Below are positions 5,089 to 13,974 of a stretch of DNA of 13,974 nt, one piece after another. Each line of letters starts with the position of its first letter. Within the stretch, counting starts at the first letter, position 1. The DNA is from Promethearchaeota archaeon (lineage in GTDB: Archaea; Asgardarchaeota; Lokiarchaeia; Sigyniarchaeales; SOKP01). The notes under the pieces were generated by a model. That model did no database searches and was not told the origin of the DNA. It was given only the letters and a program-made list of their open reading frames with translations. Where the stretch lies: positions 1 to 13,974 of the forward strand of contig JBHLON010000060.1 in the NCBI GenBank assembly GCA_048940445.1, in the 5' to 3' direction. The position numbers were made by a program, and so were the translations under genes.

Positions 5089-7488
5089 TTATTCAATTTG
5101 TATATTGTAATCCTTTCCTTCCCATTGATCATTATGAGACCAATGAAAAGTGAAAACTAATTGAGTTCCTGTTTTAAATTGAGCTGTGGGTAAGTCAACA
5201 TAGTACAACCCTAATCCTGAATCTCTAGTCTGAGAATCCTGTGCTGTTTTCCAGCTATCAGTACTCCAATGAACGATTGCAGGAGATGGAAGTTCCACTC
5301 GTAAAATGTTACTCACTTTCATTTTCCGGCTCTTATGATTATATCTCCACAGAGTAAGGTTGGAAGATACTTTATTAATAACATATCTCTGAAATGTTTG
5401 ATTAGGCATATCAAATATCTTTTTATCATTTAAAGAACGCAATAGTTTAATATATTCTGCATGTGCCCATACTAAAGGCATAGCAGACCCGGAAGGAAAA
5501 CCATTAAATAAATCTTTCTCTGGTATATCTTCAGAATCCCAAACTTGTTCGGGTATAAGGCCTCCTGGACCAGCTTGAGACTCTATAACTTTTAAAAGTT
5601 TTTTAGCTTGTTCAATATCACCTTTAGCGATTTCATAATGAGCTCGTTCACCAGCTAATAAAGGCCACCCTCTTCCAATACCTACTCCATCAAACGGATC
5701 TCCATTTTCATGTTCTCCATAACCATCTTGATTATAACGATGCCAAACTGGTCCATTTTTAGTATTTGTTTTGAGTAGTGCATCGATAACTTTAACTGTA
5801 TTTATAATTTTTGGATTATTAGCAGATCGCAATCCAAATCTTACAAGAGCTAGCGCATCCGGACTTACTATATATTCAAATTGGGCCCTACTTTGACTAG
5901 GAGGTCTATTTTTAATAGGCACATATCCATCAGCCGGTGAAGCTGCATCTGCCACATCAGGAGGACTTATTCGAACATAATAACCATCAATTTTTAATTT
6001 TTGTGTTAAATTGGAGTGAGTCACATAAGTCCACCGTTCAATATTTGAATTCCACGCATCAGCAATTTCAATTAAATATTTGGCAATCTCTTTTTCTCCA
6101 AAACTTTCAGCAAATTCTGCAGCCACTAATAGTGCTGCGACTTCAACGGCTAGAGTGAATGGAGAATAACCAGGATCCTCTTCCCAACGATCTTCTTGAG
6201 AGACAGGGCCATTACACACTAAATAACTTGCTGCTTTCTTGATTGTTGGCCAGAATTCTATTCCTTTTAACTGACCAGTCATATTAAGAGCATTTGCAAG
6301 CAAAATAGGGAAAGCGGTTTCATCCATTTGTATTCCTTTCCAATAAATTGTACCATCTAGCCACATATTTTGGGGCCAATGTCCATCTTCTTCTTGTGTA
6401 CTCATTAAATATATAAAAAGTTGTTTTGCACTTGTAATATCGCCAGCAGCTAAAAGTCCCCCTGCAGTTTCGACTAAGTCTCGAGGCCATACTATATGAT
6501 AACCACCTAAATCATTATCACTCCTTGTATAGCCCCATGGAATGGATAGGCTTGCAATTGAACCATCTGAAAATCGCTTATCCATATGTGTTCTTAATAC
6601 AGCCGTACTTATGCGATAAAAATTAACTTCTGTATTATCACTAATATGATCTAGTTTCAAACATTTTTCTTGGAATTCTAACCAAGTTTTTTCGTATTCC
6701 TCAGTTAATTGATCGAAATCTTTAAATAAAGTCGTACGTGCTAGTTGTCCTGCTTCTGCGGCATTGGTACCAAAAGCTAATGCTAAAACTATGTTTTTTT
6801 TTGATTTAGAAAGTGTAATTTCTCCTATTAATGCAATATTCCCATCAGAAGCACGCGAATAAAACATTTTCATTTTTTTATTCTGTTTAATATCTTGCCA
6901 ACCATCACTAAATCCAACATATCCACAACTCATATTGAGGAAAGATGTAGAACACGCAAGTGCGAGAGTAACGTCTTCTCTTTCAGCAAATAACATTTTA
7001 ATGCCTTTATAATCCCCAATCCATCCGTTATTCCCTAAACCATAATTTTTAATATGGGGATTTAAAAGTACATAAAGATGGAAATCATTTTCATTTTCTT
7101 CTAAAAGTTCAAAATTTATTTTCTGTAGCAATACTGGACGTCTTGGATCACTTAAAATTACTTTTTCTATGCGATAGTGATTTTTTTTAGAAGTATTGAT
7201 AACTTTAAAAGCGGGTACTCCTCGTGTTATTTGAATGATTTCATGATTACAATCTTTTTTTTCATCTTCAAAAAGATCTTTCCCATTGCTTATTAAAAAT
7301 TGCAGATCTTTAATATTTATTTGATCGATCCGTGGAAAAAATACTTCAGTTACAATTCCCTTAGCAATTGTAAACCATAGACGACTTGAGCTAGTATTTG
7401 ATGTACCTACTCCACTTTTAGAACTTACTGCCCAAGTAGGAGAGATCCCTGGATAACCAGGTGGATTGTTTTTATTATAATATATCAT
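5089..7488 (-). CDS. Glucan 1,4-alpha-glucosidase (glucoamylase, GH15) with glucodextranase-N-like domain and C-terminal CBM-like domain
   Basis: 799 aa. N-terminal PGxPGISPTW...KSGVGT...LWFTIAKGIVTEV. GH15 motifs WPRD, QEDRWEE (acid), LIPEQVW (base) and MPLVWAHAEY. No signal peptide. Confidence 0.93.
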   Translation of the reverse strand: MIYYNKNNPPGYPGISPTWAVSSKSGVGTSNTSSSRLWFTIAKGIVTEVFFPRIDQINIKDLQFLISNGKDLFEDEKKDCNHEIIQITRGVPAFKVINTSKKNHYRIEKVILSDPRRPVLLQKINFELLEENENDFHLYVLLNPHIKNYGLGNNGWIGDYKGIKMLFAEREDVTLALACSTSFLNMSCGYVGFSDGWQDIKQNKKMKMFYSRASDGNIALIGEITLSKSKKNIVLALAFGTNAAEAGQLARTTLFKDFDQLTEEYEKTWLEFQEKCLKLDHISDNTEVNFYRISTAVLRTHMDKRFSDGSIASLSIPWGYTRSDNDLGGYHIVWPRDLVETAGGLLAAGDITSAKQLFIYLMSTQEEDGHWPQNMWLDGTIYWKGIQMDETAFPILLANALNMTGQLKGIEFWPTIKKAASYLVCNGPVSQEDRWEEDPGYSPFTLAVEVAALLVAAEFAESFGEKEIAKYLIEIADAWNSNIERWTYVTHSNLTQKLKIDGYYVRISPPDVADAASPADGYVPIKNRPPSQSRAQFEYIVSPDALALVRFGLRSANNPKIINTVKVIDALLKTNTKNGPVWHRYNQDGYGEHENGDPFDGVGIGRGWPLLAGERAHYEIAKGDIEQAKKLLKVIESQAGPGGLIPEQVWDSEDIPEKDLFNGFPSGSAMPLVWAHAEYIKLLRSLNDKKIFDMPNQTFQRYVINKVSSNLTLWRYNHKSRKMKVSNILRVELPSPAIVHWSTDSWKTAQDSQTRDSGLGLYYVDLPTAQFKTGTQLVFTFHWSHNDQWEGKDYNIQIE

Positions 7489-7494
7489 AATTAA

Positions 7495-8880
7495 CTACCT
7501 CCCAAGTTCCAGTGGATGTTTACCTCCACGCCAATGTTCCTCAATTTCTTCTAAAGTTCGTCCTTTTGTTTCTGGGACATATAAGTACGTAAAGAAGATT
7601 GCAACAATTCCTATTGCTGCATAAAGCCAGAAAGTTCCAAAAGTTCCTAATAATTGTGTCAATGTTAGGAATGTAAGCGCAATAATAAAGTTAGCACCCC
7701 AATTCACTTCAGTTACAATACTCATCGCAATACCTCTAATTTTTAAGGGATAGATCTCAGAAATTAGTAGCCAAAAAACTGGACCTAATCCAATTGCAAA
7801 GAAACCCACATATGCCATTAAATTTATAGCAACTAAGGATCCTAAACCATTTAATAACCCAGGCAAGAAAAATACTACTCCTAGTATTGTTAGAGTCGCT
7901 GACATACCAAATAAGCCAATAAGTAATAATTTGCGTCTTCCAACTCTATCTAGTAAAAATATAGCAACAACAGTTAATGCAACATTCACTAATCCTACTT
8001 CAAAAGCAGCAAAAATTGCATTTGATGAAGATACGATTCCAGCAGATTGGAAAATTAGCGGTGCATAATATATAACAGTGTTAATACCTGTAAGTTGCTG
8101 GAATAGTGCTAAGGAAATACCAATTATTAAAGCTGGTTTGACTAAGGGATTTAATAATTCTTTTCTCCCACCTTTTTGCTTATTCAAACTCTCCTTTATT
8201 TCCTGTATTTCATCATCAACGTTAGTATTGTTTCGAATTTTCTTCAAAATATTTCGTGCTTTATCAAAATATCCATGATTTATTAACCATCGAGGACTAT
8301 CAGGCATACGCCACATTCCTATCATTAAAATAATACCAGGGATTACAGCTAGCCCAAACATATATCTCCATCCCCTAATTAAAGAGAATCCAAAATCTAC
8401 TAAATATGATATTACAATACCTATTGTGATAGACAATTGATTGAATGTGACTAGAAATCCACGAATTTTTGGAGGGGCTGATTCTGAGATATAAAGTGGA
8501 GCCACAAACGATGCTATACCAATTGCTATACCTACTATTATTCTTCCAATAATTAGTGTAGTAACATTTGGAGCAAAAGATGTGCCGACCGCGCCCCCAG
8601 TAAATATAATAGCTGCTAAAATTATGACTTTTCTTCTTCCATAACGATCTGCTAATTCTCCTCCCAAAAAGGCTCCCAAAATAGCACCTATTAAGACAGA
8701 ACTTACTAATAATTCTTCTACAAATGAAATTAATCCAAAATCTTCTTTAATAAAATTAATTGCCCCAGAAATTACTCCAGTATCATAACCGAATAGCATT
8801 CCACTTATTCCAGAGATAATTGCTATAACATATATAAATTTATTATTGCCTCTTTTTTCATTAATCGCCTTAATACCCAT
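7495..8880 (-). CDS. Sugar porter family MFS transporter (GalP/XylE/GLUT-like)
   Basis: 461 aa, about 12 hydrophobic segments. Motifs GYDTG, DRYGRR, PLYISE, PDSPRWL, QQLTGINTVIYY, DRVGRR, GPVFWLLISEIYP and PETKGRTLEEIE. Only 6 bp from the glucoamylase, so probably one operon. Confidence 0.95.
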   Translation of the reverse strand: MGIKAINEKRGNNKFIYVIAIISGISGMLFGYDTGVISGAINFIKEDFGLISFVEELLVSSVLIGAILGAFLGGELADRYGRRKVIILAAIIFTGGAVGTSFAPNVTTLIIGRIIVGIAIGIASFVAPLYISESAPPKIRGFLVTFNQLSITIGIVISYLVDFGFSLIRGWRYMFGLAVIPGIILMIGMWRMPDSPRWLINHGYFDKARNILKKIRNNTNVDDEIQEIKESLNKQKGGRKELLNPLVKPALIIGISLALFQQLTGINTVIYYAPLIFQSAGIVSSSNAIFAAFEVGLVNVALTVVAIFLLDRVGRRKLLLIGLFGMSATLTILGVVFFLPGLLNGLGSLVAINLMAYVGFFAIGLGPVFWLLISEIYPLKIRGIAMSIVTEVNWGANFIIALTFLTLTQLLGTFGTFWLYAAIGIVAIFFTYLYVPETKGRTLEEIEEHWRGGKHPLELGR

Positions 8881-8944: not shown

Positions 8945-9273
8945 AATATTGTTTACGAAAACTAGATGAGTTTTTAACAGAATACGAAAGAGGATTTTTA
9001 ACAATTTCTTTCAAAATACCTAAAAGGTTAAAGAATTATTCTAATAAAGGTTTTCAGAGTCCTACTGAGAAAGAATATTGTGAAAGTGAACTATTAGAAA
9101 TCATTATCAATGAGCGTAAATAAGAAAAATAACTCTTTATATAATTTGTAAAAATAATCGCTTAAATAATTAAATAGACCTAAATATGTTGGGTTTTTTT
9201 TTATAAGGTATAAAAACAACCTTTTTGATATCTATATTTTTTACTAGATTAAAAGATGTTAAAGTGAATTAAG

Positions 9274-9777
9274 ATGGGAATCTTAACAGAAGATGAAATA
9301 AAAAATTTACCAAAACGCTTCGAAACAGTTCCGTATAGTACATTTTTTAAAGTGTGGTATGCTTTACAGAAAGCTATCCCTCATGAACAAAAAGGAGAAG
9401 TTTTCACAAAAATTGGGAGAACTATCGGAAATGAATTTGAAGATGAAGGAATAGGAACTATTGATGAGTTTCTTGAACGTTTACAAGAGTTTTTGGAGAA
9501 AGAATGGGCTATTACAGATAACGCTAAAGTTGACTTTATAAAAAACGAAAATGGAGACGTCATAAAATTACTAGCAAAACAAGATAGTTGTAAAATGTGT
9601 TATGCTAATACCTATTATAAGTTTCACGACAATGGAAGTCCATCCTGTATGTTTCCACAGGTAATTATGGGAGTCTTAAGCAAAGTGAGGAAAAAGTTCG
9701 GGTTTAAAAATTTACGATTTGACGGTGTACAGAAAGGTGGAGTAGGGGAATGTGCCATGGTCTGGAATCTCAAATAA
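9274..9777 (+). CDS. V4R-like small-ligand/metal-binding domain protein (stand-alone)
   Basis: 167 aa. KIGRTIG helix followed by CKMC...PSCMFPQVIMGVL...GECAMVW. This Cys pattern and G..IG helix are typical of V4R/H-NOX/Bet3-fold proteins. Confidence 0.65.
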   Translation: MGILTEDEIKNLPKRFETVPYSTFFKVWYALQKAIPHEQKGEVFTKIGRTIGNEFEDEGIGTIDEFLERLQEFLEKEWAITDNAKVDFIKNENGDVIKLLAKQDSCKMCYANTYYKFHDNGSPSCMFPQVIMGVLSKVRKKFGFKNLRFDGVQKGGVGECAMVWNLK

Positions 9778-9821
9778 CAAAATTTCTTATTATTTTTATT
9801 ATTCCTATTAAATTTGATCTC

Positions 9822-9932
9822 TTATAAATCTTTTAATCAATATCCTTCTTCTATTAATTTGACCACGTATGCTTTGAATCGAGTTGCTTAACCACCATCC
9901 ACAATATCGTGATCTAGATGTGCTGTGATTCC
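9822..9932 (-). pseudogene. C-terminal remnant of a 2-oxoacid dehydrogenase E2-like acyltransferase catalytic domain
   Basis: Minus frame reads GITAHLDHDIVDGG*ATRFKAYVVKLIEEGY*LKDL*. It carries the catalytic DHxxxDG motif (9894-9914), two in-frame stops (9888-9890, 9837-9839) and no 5' part. Not in the ORF track. Confidence 0.85.
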
Positions 9933-9948
9933 CTAATTTATAATTGTT
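9929..9948 (-). repeat. Copy P' of the 20-bp promoter segment at 11775-11794
   Basis: ttccctaatttataattgtt vs ttcccaaatttataattgtt, 19/20 identical. Contains TTATAAAT on the minus strand. Confidence 0.7.
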
Positions 9949-9963
9949 AAGCTAATCATCTCT

Positions 9964-9995
9964 AACTAACAAAAAAAAATTACGAAATTGTAATA
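9964..9995. repeat. Intergenic element X' (copy of 12847-12886)
   Basis: aactaacaaaa (11/11) plus aaaaattacgaaattgtaata (18/21), separated by an 8-bp indel relative to X. Core palindrome TTAC-N6-GTAA. Confidence 0.6.
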
Positions 9996-10045
9996 CATTA
10001 ATAAATACGTACACAATAAAGATCAATCTGTTTTATCAAGGATGA

Positions 10046-10402
10046 TTATGTAACACTATAATACTCTAAGACCTTTAAGGCAAATCTGCTTGAAACTGTT
10101 GAAGGACCACCTCCCATTTCAATCCCTACTTCAATCGCCTCTAAAATTTGCTGTTGAGAAGCACCAGATTTCAAAGATTCCTTAATATGCCATTCCATAC
10201 AAGATTCACAGTTTATCACGATCGAAATACCTATCGCGATTAATTCCTTGTAGATTTTTTTAAGAGCACCGTCTAAATATGTTTGCTTTTCCATTTTTAA
10301 AAAAGCCTCATAAACTTTAGAACCAAGTTCTTTTACCTTTTTATCAATTTCATTCCTATCTTTAACAATTTTTTCAATTTTTTTTCTATCTTCTTCATTC
10401 AA
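10046..10402 (-). CDS. Carboxymuconolactone decarboxylase / AhpD-like family protein
   Basis: KELIAIGISIVINCESCMEWH (CxxC...H) and EAIEVGIEMGGGP. The ORF track opens at 10414, but a GGTGA Shine-Dalgarno at 10408-10412 favours the TTG at 10402. Confidence 0.88.
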   Translation of the reverse strand: MNEEDRKKIEKIVKDRNEIDKKVKELGSKVYEAFLKMEKQTYLDGALKKIYKELIAIGISIVINCESCMEWHIKESLKSGASQQQILEAIEVGIEMGGGPSTVSSRFALKVLEYYSVT

Positions 10403-10525
10403 AAGAATCACCAAAATTTAATTAATATCATAAATAGATTAGGATTTTGTTCTATAAATAGATGAATTTATTGAAGTTGCAAGGAACTTACGATATAAAA
10501 TTTTTAAAGATAACTAAGCTGGTTT

Positions 10526-10637
10526 CTAATCTATGAAAATATTATAATAAACAAAAATTAGTAGAACATCTAAATCCTTGTTTAATAGAAGATATTGATT
10601 AATTAAATACTGATGGAACAAAAGATAAGGTCCAACC
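10526..10637 (-). pseudogene. 3' remnant of a paralogue of the 12977-13681 hypothetical gene
   Basis: 10521-10621 matches 12972-13072 at 94/101 nt, and weaker similarity extends to 10637/13088. VGPYLLFHQYLINQYLLLNKDLDVLLIFVYYNIFID* vs VGSYALFHQYLINQYLLLNKNLDVILIFIYYNIFID*. Confidence 0.9.
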
Positions 10638-10841
10638 TGTGAATGATATTTACTCCCCAGATTTCTGCTCATATTTCCTTCTGAGTTTTTTCCCCAATGT
10701 AACATCCACTTCAAAAAATCCCGTCATATAATGCTTCTTCAAGAACACACCATATATTTCACTTAATAATCTGCGATCTTTCGAAAATGAGTTAACAGTA
10801 TAATTTCCTATGGAATCATTGAAATCATTTCTATTTTTCAT
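10632..10841 (-). pseudogene. N-terminal remnant of an E2-like acyltransferase (catalytic-domain-only family)
   Basis: MKNR...FSKDRR...KHYMTGFFEVDVT...KSGE*ISFTGW. The TAA at 10650-10652 is one substitution from AAA, which would restore the family motif GEKISFTGW. The frame then runs into unrelated sequence. Confidence 0.8.
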
Positions 10842-10894
10842 GATTTGACAGAAGAGATTTAAAATTAAAAATTTTTATTAAAAGAGTCAATTAG

Positions 10895-11737
10895 TTACCT
10901 TTTCGGAATACCATCCGAGCATGAGACTCCTACTTGGCATAGACCACACGCATAAATATCGATCCCATAAGTTCGATTGATAAAGGGAATCGTACTTGTT
11001 ACATGGGGCGCACAAATCATTTTATCATGGCGATTTTCGAAGGATATGGCGTTTACAGGACATCTGGAGATACAATCTCCGCAACTTATGCAAAATGCGT
11101 ATGGATCTGAAGGGCGATTAACAGCATCACTTGGGAGTGTTAAATCAATTATGATACTCCCGCACCTCATTGCTTTTCCTCGTGCATTGATAAACCCATC
11201 AGATAATCCAAAAGAGCCCATACCTGCCGCGAAACAATTATGCCTATGAGACCAGTTAGACGCCCAAATTTTTCGGTTAATTTTAAATAGCTTCTTATCA
11301 AGAGTAGGCGCAAAAGCATTAATTCCTAGCTTTTTTAATTCCTCTACTAAATAAGATTGAATATTCATGTTTGCTTGTTCCCCAAAAAGCCTGGTTTGAG
11401 CCCATCTTTCAGAAGGCATTGTTTTAGAATAATATAGGTTTTCCATCTTAGTTTTATGACTAATAGGTAAAATATAAGCTACTACGCTTAGATTTTTATC
11501 ACTGAATGCAATATTATTCTTTTTACAATACCAGTCATAGGCCTCAGAAGGAGTTAGATGAAATTCGCCAATAATCTTTTTATATCTAGTATAAATGGTA
11601 TCGTTTCCGTCAGCAATACCTATGAGTACGTCTGGTTCGAAAATATGTGACCTATCAAGTTTATTCAGTTTATTACATTCATCATTTTCAAGGAATTGAT
11701 TGATTTTATTGACAAACCACTCCTTATTTACTTCCAT
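10895..11737 (-). CDS. QueG/reductive-dehalogenase-like 4Fe-4S (probable cobalamin-binding) protein of unknown function
   Basis: 280 aa. WSHRH..FAAGMGSFGLSDGFI...G...R.GSII, CISCGDCISRCPVNAI, DKMIC and CGLCQVGVSC. AGGAG Shine-Dalgarno before the ATG. Confidence 0.85.
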   Translation of the reverse strand: MEVNKEWFVNKINQFLENDECNKLNKLDRSHIFEPDVLIGIADGNDTIYTRYKKIIGEFHLTPSEAYDWYCKKNNIAFSDKNLSVVAYILPISHKTKMENLYYSKTMPSERWAQTRLFGEQANMNIQSYLVEELKKLGINAFAPTLDKKLFKINRKIWASNWSHRHNCFAAGMGSFGLSDGFINARGKAMRCGSIIIDLTLPSDAVNRPSDPYAFCISCGDCISRCPVNAISFENRHDKMICAPHVTSTIPFINRTYGIDIYACGLCQVGVSCSDGIPKR

Positions 11738-11774
11738 ACTCCTAACTTCATAAATAATAGTATTCTGACTTTAG

Positions 11775-11794
11775 TTCCCAAATTTATAATTGTT
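11775..11794 (-). promoter_or_regulatory. Putative BRE/TATA promoter P of the QueG-like / E2-like unit
   Basis: Minus strand AACAA-TTATAAAT-TTGGGAA, with the TATA about 45 bp upstream of the ATG at 11737. Duplicated at 9929-9948. Confidence 0.55.
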
Positions 11795-11846
11795 TATGAA
11801 TTTTTTATATATCCTATATATCAATTATCGAGTATAATTCCATAAA

Positions 11847-12770
11847 TTATAATATCAATTCCCATTGCTCTTCGGTTAAATCTTGCCCCCAAATAGGGTG
11901 AGATTTAGATTCAACTAATCTAAATCCATGCTTTTTATATAATCTACGAGCTATTATAAGATCACTGAAAGTTCCTAATATAACCTTCTGATAACCTCGA
12001 TTTTTGCTGAAATTAAGTGCCTCATTAATTAATTTTGTTCCAATTCCATAATTTCGCATGTGAGGTTCAACAAGAAGCCATCGGAGTTGTGCAATTTTGT
12101 CGTCATTTTTAGTAATAGCAATTGAACCTATAATCTCATTTCCCTGCTCAACAATCCATAATTTTTCTTTTTTTGGATCATAACTTTCGATAAATTCTGC
12201 CATGTATTTAGCCACATAAGCTTCAAAAGTCTCATCAAGTTGATATTCCTTTGCATAAATCACTCCATGTCTGTATGTTATATATCCTATATCACCAGGT
12301 CTATGAGAACGTAAGCTATAAAATTCTGGTTTTTTGGTTTCACTCTTAAAAATTCTTTCGATAGTGCTCATCGAGTTGATTAATTGATCTTGCTGTTCAT
12401 CTGATATGTCTGTAAGCAACGCTTTAATTTGATTATTTGCTCTATTTTGAAGTTCCAAAATTGCTTGTTTTCCGTCTGATGCTAATGAAAGAATTTGTTT
12501 ACGTAGATCCTTATTTGATTGTTTCTTTTGAATTAACCCTTTATCTTCAAAACTATTTAATATTCGGCTGAGGTATGCCGGATCCAAGTGAATTATTTTA
12601 ACAAGCTCGCTCGCAGTTGTGGTTGTTAAACGGTTAATTTCAAACATGATTCTTACTTCAGTTAAAGAATATTTACTTTTTAGGAGCGTTCTATCTAACA
12701 GCCCTAATAAATTGGTATAAAAACGATTAAAACTTCGTATTTCTGCTATTTTTTCCAAATTTGCTTTCAT
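11847..12770 (-). CDS. Bifunctional MarR-family HTH regulator / GNAT acetyltransferase
   Basis: N-terminal IRSFNRFYT...YSLTEVRIMFEI...LDPAYLSRIL...D.RKQILSL (wHTH). C-terminal AQLRWLLVEPHMRNYGIGTKLI (acetyl-CoA motif A) and ARRLYKKHGF. Confidence 0.93.
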   Translation of the reverse strand: MKANLEKIAEIRSFNRFYTNLLGLLDRTLLKSKYSLTEVRIMFEINRLTTTTASELVKIIHLDPAYLSRILNSFEDKGLIQKKQSNKDLRKQILSLASDGKQAILELQNRANNQIKALLTDISDEQQDQLINSMSTIERIFKSETKKPEFYSLRSHRPGDIGYITYRHGVIYAKEYQLDETFEAYVAKYMAEFIESYDPKKEKLWIVEQGNEIIGSIAITKNDDKIAQLRWLLVEPHMRNYGIGTKLINEALNFSKNRGYQKVILGTFSDLIIARRLYKKHGFRLVESKSHPIWGQDLTEEQWELIL

Positions 12771-12801
12771 TAGTATTTAATCTATATTATGATTCTATCA
12801 A

Positions 12802-12845
12802 TATAAACTTTGACTATGTCAACTAATTACTTGACATTATCAAGT
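12802..12845 (-). promoter_or_regulatory. TATA box plus tandem palindromic operator upstream of MarR-GNAT
   Basis: TTGAC-tat-GTCAA (12810-12822) and ac-TTGAC-att-ATCAA-gt (12829-12845), with cores 21 bp apart. They lie directly upstream of a minus-strand TTTATA (12802-12807), about 32 bp before the ATG. Confidence 0.75.
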
Positions 12846-12846
12846 G

Positions 12847-12886
12847 AACTAACAAAATTAGAGATAAAACTTACAAAACTGTAATA
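12847..12886. repeat. Intergenic element X (copy at 9964-9995)
   Basis: aactaacaaaa-ttagagat-aaaacttacaaaactgtaata, containing the palindrome TTACA-N4-TGTAA. Confidence 0.6.
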
Positions 12887-12976
12887 TTTTACCAAGTTTT
12901 AAGTAAGTATTAAAGTAGATTTTATATAAAAAAATTTAGTTGCTGTTTATAATGTTATAGATATTCAATTCGGTTT

Positions 12977-13681
12977 CTAATCTATAAAAATATTATAGTA
13001 AATAAAAATTAGTATAACATCCAAATTCTTGTTTAATAAAAGATATTGATTAATTAAATACTGATGGAACAAGGCATAAGACCCTACCCACTCATACTCT
13101 AAATTTATCTTTATAAAAATCAATTCGCTCAAATCCAATGTAGACATATTATCATACACATAGGGGATGTATGTGAAATTCAAAAACCACCTAAAATCTA
13201 ATTCCCCTGATCCTTCTACCTTCAAAAGAAGTGATTGATTGTTTTGATCCTTTAAGTCAAATATCGTATTGTTGTTATAAGTTAAGTATAATTTGGATTG
13301 ATTATCACCCGAAAAAGAATAACGCAAATATTGATGATAATCACCACCAAACAATGAATATAATCCTCGCCACCATGATCCCGTATCAGTTTCAATACGA
13401 CTCTTCAGAAAATTTATTAAATTCCTATCAACATAACTGCTAATACCCTTATATATGGGATATGGAGGTATGTAATCATTATTATGCAAATAAGCTGTAT
13501 AATTCAAATTTTCGACTTTATCTATGATTTCCTCTCGATTTGAAAAATCTATATTATATTCTGTTATATAATAAATTCTAGCCTGAACTACAATTATATT
13601 GTAAAATACTGGTACGAGAATAATTGCCGCTACTAAAATACTGAAAATAAAAATGCAGATTAAGGCTTTCTTGTGTTTCAT
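12977..13681 (-). CDS. Hypothetical single-pass membrane-anchored protein
   Basis: 234 aa. MKHKK plus a hydrophobic anchor of about 25 aa, then a Tyr/Asn-rich domain with several NxS/T sequons. Coding status is supported by mostly synonymous or conservative divergence from the paralogous fragment at 10526-10637. Confidence 0.8.
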   Translation of the reverse strand: MKHKKALICIFIFSILVAAIILVPVFYNIIVVQARIYYITEYNIDFSNREEIIDKVENLNYTAYLHNNDYIPPYPIYKGISSYVDRNLINFLKSRIETDTGSWWRGLYSLFGGDYHQYLRYSFSGDNQSKLYLTYNNNTIFDLKDQNNQSLLLKVEGSGELDFRWFLNFTYIPYVYDNMSTLDLSELIFIKINLEYEWVGSYALFHQYLINQYLLLNKNLDVILIFIYYNIFID

Positions 13682-13974
13682 TTGGTTTTTTCGCCTTTTT
13701 ATTCTAATGGTAATTAAGCTGCTTTACCAGATTTGGAAATTTTTTCTTCAGCTCATTTTCAAAATGAGTAATTATTACTTAAAAATCTTATCTTTGAAAA
13801 ACTAACCTTCTAAAAACCTTGAATAAATAGATTTATAATTTTTGCTCCAATGTCTTTTTGTAGTACAACAATTGCCAAAATGGAGAAAAATAATTCGAAA
13901 ATTTTGGGGTTTAGGAAGCTGGAGCTCAAAACATATGTATCGCCCCATGACCCACACCACCGGTCTGTCCCCAC

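Follow-up and report, generated by a model that had tools for sequence, protein, structure and literature searches.

Why does one stretch of an archaeal contig carry the same landmarks twice on its minus strand, in the same order and around different intact genes? The question is raised by contig C35 of a Promethearchaeota metagenome-assembled genome (G000; 3.64 Mb, 30% G+C, 139 contigs), which was analysed in its entirety and whose 13,974 nucleotides (nt) are here called the window. The minus strand encodes, in this order, a hypothetical gene (hyp), a short element X, a MarR-GNAT fusion gene, a short element P, a QueG-like gene and the N-terminal fragment of an E2-like gene (version A), and then an orphan tail of hyp, a CMD gene, second copies of X and P (X′ and P′) and the C-terminal E2 fragment (version B); orf167 follows on the opposite strand. 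The initial annotation had read this as two diverged copies of one scaffold that each gained or lost a single-gene module beside X, in the manner of a gene-capture hotspot. The first half of that reading is borne out: the hyp end, X and P do occur twice on the minus strand in the same order and orientation, the spacing differences (~440 nt from the hyp end to X, ~1037 nt from X to P) are correct, and one scaffold of hyp tail, X, P and E2 is present in two collinear versions with different intact genes. The second half, X and P as a cassette-like capture site, is not. The versions are joined by a single illegitimate junction that destroyed the E2-like gene, and we therefore see in the region an ordinary rearrangement scar rather than a site of cassette capture. 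We consider it probable that the scar arose when two versions of the locus recombined once, unequally and head to tail, through a microhomology junction, and that loss of redundant genes followed.

The E2-like Gene and the Head-to-Tail Junction

In the related genome G017 the MarR-GNAT gene, P, the QueG-like gene, an intact E2-like gene (275 aa) and orf167 lie in a single run, and the intact E2-like protein matches PF00198 (E 1.7e-16). Window positions 10631-12848 align to this locus with 89% identity and positions 9194-9930 with 84%. In the middle of E2, 506 nt of G017 are exchanged for a 700-nt window patch that holds the second hyp tail, CMD, X′ and P′. The E2 parts proposed on either side of the patch are real: the intact protein of G017 matches them at codons 1-75 and 240-274. 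Both remnants hold in-frame stops. The N fragment (10636..10841, minus strand; codons 1 to ~69) has a TAA at 10650-10652; it is 79% identical to G017 at the nt level, with mismatches distributed across all three codon positions (14, 8 and 21). The C fragment (9837..9930, minus strand; codons ~240-268) is interrupted by a TAA (9888-9890) and ends early at a TGA (9837-9839). The gene is deleted completely in another related genome, G019. Given the intact E2 in G017, the stops in the window stubs and the loss in G019, comparison of the loci identifies the window E2 as a destroyed gene with the version B patch inside it.

At junction J1 (10631..10637, minus strand) E2 codon ~70, which is contiguous with the rest of its gene in G017, adjoins hyp codon ~197, a novel head-to-tail junction as expected from a duplication. 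The microhomology GGTTGGA reads both as E2 and as hyp sequence, with GGTNGG in common. At the other edge of the patch (junction J5, 9929-9931, minus strand) P′ is fused directly to the E2 C fragment with an AA microhomology. The possibility that P′ is a piece of E2 coding sequence was discarded, the E2 of G017 being unrelated at that position. The boundary between the units is thus an illegitimate junction within two genes that killed one of them, and this one junction accounts for the landmarks recurring in order, for the orphan tail and for E2 being split.

The annotation of the region has to be corrected accordingly: the E2-like stubs and the orphan hyp tail are not genes, and neither is a chimeric 62-aa ORF (open reading frame) at 10526-10714. 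The latter begins out of frame in the E2 stub, closes with the 37-codon orphan hyp tail and is likely to be annotated as a gene.

The hyp Gene and Its Orphan Tail

The intact hyp gene (12977..13681, minus strand) encodes 234 aa with an N-terminal hydrophobic segment. Neither Pfam nor NCBIfam assigns it to a family, its homologues are confined to Promethearchaeota/Lokiarchaeia records with identity of at most 65%, and its presence in its own genus is patchy (6 of 41 genomes). Tail copy A (H; 12955..13088, minus strand) comprises its final 37 codons, the stop codon and ~22-33 nt of 3′ sequence, and the orphan tail copy B (H′; 10504..10637, minus strand) corresponds to codons 197-234, the stop codon and 3′ flank. 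The pair (13088-12955 and 10637-10504) is 85% identical over 134 nt; its core, 117 nt at 88.9%, is the only significant repeat of the region genome-wide, and 33 nt of it are identical. H′ differs from H by 13 mismatches over 111 coding nt, with the frame intact. Tandem arrays of two or three hyp-family genes were also observed in the sister genus, g21 (loci L116, L117 and L118 in G122, G126 and G127; L072 in CP070831), and one of the G126 copies has an internal TGA.

The Elements X and P

X (12847..12886, minus strand) is a 40-nt element whose head is the palindrome TTACA-N4-TGTAA. X′ (9964..9995, minus strand) matches it at 18 of 21 positions and, after a gap that corresponds to an 8-nt deletion in X′, at 11 of 11. 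P (11775..11794, minus strand), a TATA-like element 38 nt ahead of the QueG-like ATG and the putative promoter of that gene, matches P′ (9929..9948, minus strand) at 19 of 20 positions. Significance was assessed mainly by composition-aware local alignment against 1000 dinucleotide shuffles and 2090 AT-rich genomic chunks. The score of X was reached by 2 shuffles and 1 chunk, that of P by none of either, and that of the collinear X+P chain by none of either (observed 51.0, maximum 39.4, z ~10). Matches of this quality are thus rare in shuffled sequence, although plain +2/−2 scoring gives weaker values (p ~0.011 for X and ~0.08 for P). At ≤1 mismatch P occurs at just these two sites of the 3.64-Mb genome, and the 21-nt head of X at ≤3 mismatches occurs at four. 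The spacers between the two units have no other similarity above shuffles. Spacer homologies that looked plausible by eye (A with B, with G017 upstream of X, with locus L074 downstream of CMD) were rejected on the same ground, none exceeding dinucleotide shuffles.

The proposal that X and P mark cassette boundaries is contradicted by their occurrence in relatives. P is identical in G017 (20/20), and G043 and G049 have related sequences (ATTAAAAAYTTGGGAA) 34-42 nt ahead of their QueG-like orthologues. In G019 a run of N spans the expected position of P (L043:10170-10270; G019:C71). By this conservation P is predicted to be the promoter region of the QueG-like gene itself (10895..11737, minus strand; 280 aa, intact; a QueG/RdhA-like 4Fe-4S protein, every family match of which falls under the curated cut-offs). 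P′ would therefore be the relic of a lost second P-QueG-like copy, which version B would once have carried. X has orthologues upstream of MarR-GNAT in G017, with a perfect TTACAATTTTGTAA, and in G019. It does not recur at variable junctions: it is absent at all 18 sister-genus and all 8 metagenomic MarR-GNAT loci, whose neighbours vary. X thus appears to be a locus-specific palindromic element, and both X and P are putative regulatory DNA of the locus itself, not recombination sites.

A comparison of X′ with G017, made by eye and without a significance test, suggests that X′ retains G017-like flanks that are gone from copy A, yet it shares the tail of A, TTTTGTTAGTT. If this flank likeness is real, X′ is a relic that preserves an earlier state of this locus and not a copy of present-day A. 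The idea that X is a genome-wide operator or regulon motif was abandoned: TTACA-N4-TGTAA is not enriched (12 sites observed, ~18 expected by our own estimate from base composition) and lies upstream of just one of the seven 106-aa-family paralogues.

MarR-GNAT and CMD as Old Partners

The MarR-GNAT fusion gene (11847..12770, minus strand; 307 aa, intact) is preceded by a predicted operator/promoter region (12771..12846, minus strand) with two TTGA-type palindromes and a TATA-like box. Its product is 93% identical to that of G017 at the aa level, and the gene is present in 4 of 42 genomes of its own genus and in 16 of 40 of g21. DNA alignments of relatives to this module all begin at 12828-12852, a conserved left edge.

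The CMD module (10046..10491, minus strand) consists of ~76 nt of upstream spacer and an intact AhpD/CMD-family ORF (10046-10414). Window positions 10490-10055, i.e. CMD with the 76-nt spacer, match the DNA immediately after the MarR-GNAT stop codon of locus L074 at 81% identity; the spacer likeness (z = 14) is the sole one above shuffles. In L074/L080, as in five g21 genomes, the orthologue of the module is the immediate 3′ neighbour of MarR-GNAT; the usual order in g21 is small GTPase (divergent), MarR-GNAT, CMD and M28 peptidase. The orthologue is missing from G017 and G019. Since CMD directly follows MarR-GNAT in the sister genus, where it is a conserved downstream partner, gene order identifies it as an old associate of MarR-GNAT, and not as the captured stranger or swapped passenger of the initial annotation. 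The two ancestral partners are held apart in the present genome.

Two side observations concern these genes. In L070:6176-7319 (G054:C30) a CMD/AhpD-family paralogue precedes a full, lipoyl-less E2-like gene by 41 nt; the two families thus adjoin both there and in unit B of the window, and may be functionally linked. Third-codon-position divergence to G017 is 9.4% for MarR-GNAT, 24% for the QueG-like gene and 36-37% for orf167 and PMSR (window 11847-12770 compared with L042 and L043). The low MarR-GNAT value, together with the presence of the gene in so few genomes of the genus, suggests recent exchange among these lineages. We dropped this low synonymous divergence (9%, against ~36% in flanking genes) as proof of foreign cargo, because the low-divergence tract is centred on MarR-GNAT and fades to both sides, and a separate homologous exchange fits equally well.

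Recurrence of the Orphan-Tail Pattern in the Genome

Self-comparison of the genome revealed at least nine loci in which an intact gene is followed by cargo and then by an orphan copy of its tail: the hyp locus, with its diverged 3′-end copy downstream in the same orientation, and at least eight others (on C13, C4, C49, C65, C96, C119, C134 and C130; cargo of 0.7-9.6 kb), none of the latter with an integrase. The tail-bearing genes code for a thiolase, a Zn-ADH, an HDAC-like protein, a GT2, a beta-CASP protein and MeaB, besides the C130 gene and a 94-aa gene on C13. Among the cargoes are LRR proteins, a CitMHS transporter, TetR with a methyltransferase, and an F420 oxidoreductase. At seven of these loci (L107-L113: C4:48.5-59.4 kb, C49:10.0-12.9 kb, C65:0.3-3.3 kb, C96:67.4-69.2 kb, C119:69.9-73.8 kb, C134:112.5-116.2 kb and C130:0-2.1 kb) the intact gene is of housekeeping type, and its orphan tail, 80-84% identical to it, always lies downstream. 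Nine 3′ tails in this genome compare with at most one 5′ stub. Pooled mismatches between orphan and intact tails (98, 79 and 162 by codon position) fit long neutral decay. The MeaB locus has an empty site in G019.

The C13 locus (L106; C13:1-3400) lies on the adjacent contig, the syntenic continuation of the locus past window position 13974. There the 3′ end of the 94-aa gene is present as a 111-nt direct repeat (42-152 and 1692-1802) with a 130-aa gene and an LRR gene enclosed between the copies; the second of these copies is followed by two more genes. Identity between the tails is 98%, and the flanking cargoes are unrelated. The corresponding site is empty in G019 and holds one 270-aa gene in G017. 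At the C134 locus we also noted a ~90-nt element (L112:2116-2206; C134:114115-114206), with more copies on C78, C101 and C110 and several in G017, G047 and G054; ARAGORN identified no tRNA in it and Rfam gave no match.

Tentatively, the hyp locus could be one of at least ten products of a systematic, integrase-free gene gain in this Asgard lineage by tail-anchored stacking, a reading that we find possible rather than likely. DNA of a related lineage would be anchored in a conserved gene tail, its far end would be joined by microhomology, and the incoming version of the locus would be stacked in front of the resident one. If so, donor and recipient versions of one regulatory scaffold (X-P) are preserved side by side. 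The pattern may represent the way in which Asgard archaea acquire and reshuffle accessory genes with no dedicated recombinase, and the window offers a well-resolved case of it with an intact outgroup locus. Taken alone, it is a pseudogene-bearing rearrangement scar in a single metagenome-assembled genome.

Origin of the Two Versions

The unequal recombination that we favour would have started from a locus with hyp, X, MarR-GNAT, P, the QueG-like gene and the E2-like gene, followed by orf167 on the other strand. A break at E2 codon ~70 would have been joined, through the 6-7-nt microhomology, to hyp codon ~197 of a second version, which would set version B directly behind version A. Version B would then have lost what was redundant or dispensable, namely its MarR-GNAT and QueG-like copies and E2 codons 1 to ~240; what is left of it are the orphan hyp tail, CMD as an intact gene and, as short relics, X′ and P′. 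Version A has MarR-GNAT and the QueG-like gene but lacks CMD, and both E2 stubs are decaying. The two versions might have been sister copies in one genome, produced by in-situ tandem duplication and followed by complementary loss, for which we see somewhat less than an even chance; they could equally have been alleles of two related lineages, stacked by tail-anchored illegitimate recombination.

Several observations weigh against this course of events. The presumed parent arrangement (hyp-CMD-X or hyp-X-MarR-GNAT) was found in no genome examined, and no relative has hyp at this locus or beside CMD or MarR-GNAT. What is recognisably common to both versions amounts to just 134 + 32 + 20 nt, i.e. 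the hyp tail, X and P, without the homology along the whole unit that a tandem duplication leaves, and the spacers are not significantly alike. The order CMD-then-X′ cannot be derived from the g21 order MarR-GNAT-then-CMD by deletions alone, and at least one further rearrangement is therefore needed. Finally, the last ~30 hyp codons are 85-87% identical at the nt level even to sister-genus homologues; for this reason H′ could derive from a paralogue, and we gave up dating the event by the divergence between H and H′.

The alternatives fit less well. Part of the same evidence would be met by a single-event patchwork, in which E2 was hit by a double-strand break or a broken fork and repair went through microhomology-mediated break-induced replication with serial template switching. 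The hyp tail, the CMD module, X and P would have been copied before the return to E2, and a full second copy would never have existed. The shared pieces are indeed short, collinear with their template and edged by 2-7-nt microhomologies, and a patchwork spares the two independent deletions that would leave the 20-nt island of P′. However, the G017-like flanks that X′ seems by eye to hold would mean that it was not copied from present-day A. The copies moreover differ by 5-12%, so that the event is old and a patchwork indistinguishable from duplication plus deletion. To our knowledge there is no archaeal precedent, and we consider this origin unlikely.

Capture at X (and P) as a site-specific, integron-like point, with single-gene modules moved by a recombinase encoded elsewhere, is in our view very unlikely. 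It draws on the plasticity of the region, with three gene-content differences among G000, G017 and G019, on the edges of homology of the MarR-GNAT module, which are sharp in all relatives, and on the left edge of X, which meets three different sequences (in G017/G019 the spacer of a 106-aa gene, in A hyp with a further 90 nt, in B CMD with a further 50 nt). It is opposed by the absence of X from all 26 other MarR-GNAT loci with their varying right-hand neighbours, by the lack of genome-wide enrichment of its palindrome, by the assignment of P to the QueG-like gene and of CMD to vertical descent with MarR-GNAT, and by a unit boundary that cuts through two coding sequences at the cost of one gene. 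As the initial annotation stated, the window has no integrase: a Pfam scan of its main ORFs (~120 aa or longer) and of two junction ORFs of 62-63 aa detected no recombinase. The DNA searched ends with the contig, 293 nt upstream of hyp. An assembly artefact that chained two strain variants of the locus into one contig deserves hardly any credence. The genome is a metagenome assembly and the window a whole 14-kb contig, but the junctions share only 2-7 nt, far under assembler word sizes, and could therefore not have been created by the assembler; no repeat is present other than the 117-nt one at 89%. The stop mutations of the two E2 stubs are independent, as in a real old pseudogene, and the same architecture recurs on at least eight other contigs.

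Other Features of the Window

Between PMSR and orf167 the window carries a GH15 glucodextranase-like gene and an MFS sugar porter (5089-8880); a 360-aa Fe-S protein gene and a 395-aa ATP-pyrophosphatase-like gene occupy this place in G017 and G019. Scans for tRNAs, Rfam families and bacterial promoters and terminators gave no matches.

Comparison with Known Systems

Integron gene cassettes resemble the locus in that single-gene differences lie next to short repeated sequences. They differ from it in the integrase IntI, of which no counterpart was detected among the tyrosine recombinases sought in the scanned ORFs up to the contig end, and in the attC-type site at the 3′ end of each cassette. 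Here the 14-nt palindrome of X is 5′ of MarR-GNAT and 3′ of CMD, none of its type follows MarR-GNAT or the QueG-like gene or marks the variable junctions of the 26 related loci, the modules have their own promoters and the boundaries fall within genes. Prophages and islands integrate at the 3′ end of a gene and displace a pseudo-tail, as e14 does in Escherichia coli icd, and the direct repeat of the hyp 3′ end (33-nt identical core, 134 nt in total) likewise flanks a block of genes. Unlike in e14, the window has no integrase, phage or element genes: between H and H′ lie MarR-GNAT, the QueG-like gene and the E2 stub alone, syntenic with G017, so that the enclosed block is an ancestral local operon.

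Closer parallels are found in recombination without a dedicated enzyme. Tandem segmental duplication with complementary loss also produces one novel junction from a downstream (E2) to an upstream (hyp) point, with landmarks in direct order and a different gene subset in each copy; the window departs from it in a second copy reduced to three short relics and one gene, in spacers that cannot be aligned and in a position of CMD unexplained by deletions alone. Homology-facilitated illegitimate recombination, or Campbell-type additive integration, has been described in Acinetobacter and Streptococcus. It differs from the present case in that the cargo here is syntenic with sister genomes and that hyp has no empty site or donor among the genomes examined, but it leaves the same signature of an intact gene with its tail, cargo and an orphan tail, with a microhomology junction and no integrase, a signature present at no fewer than nine loci of this genome.

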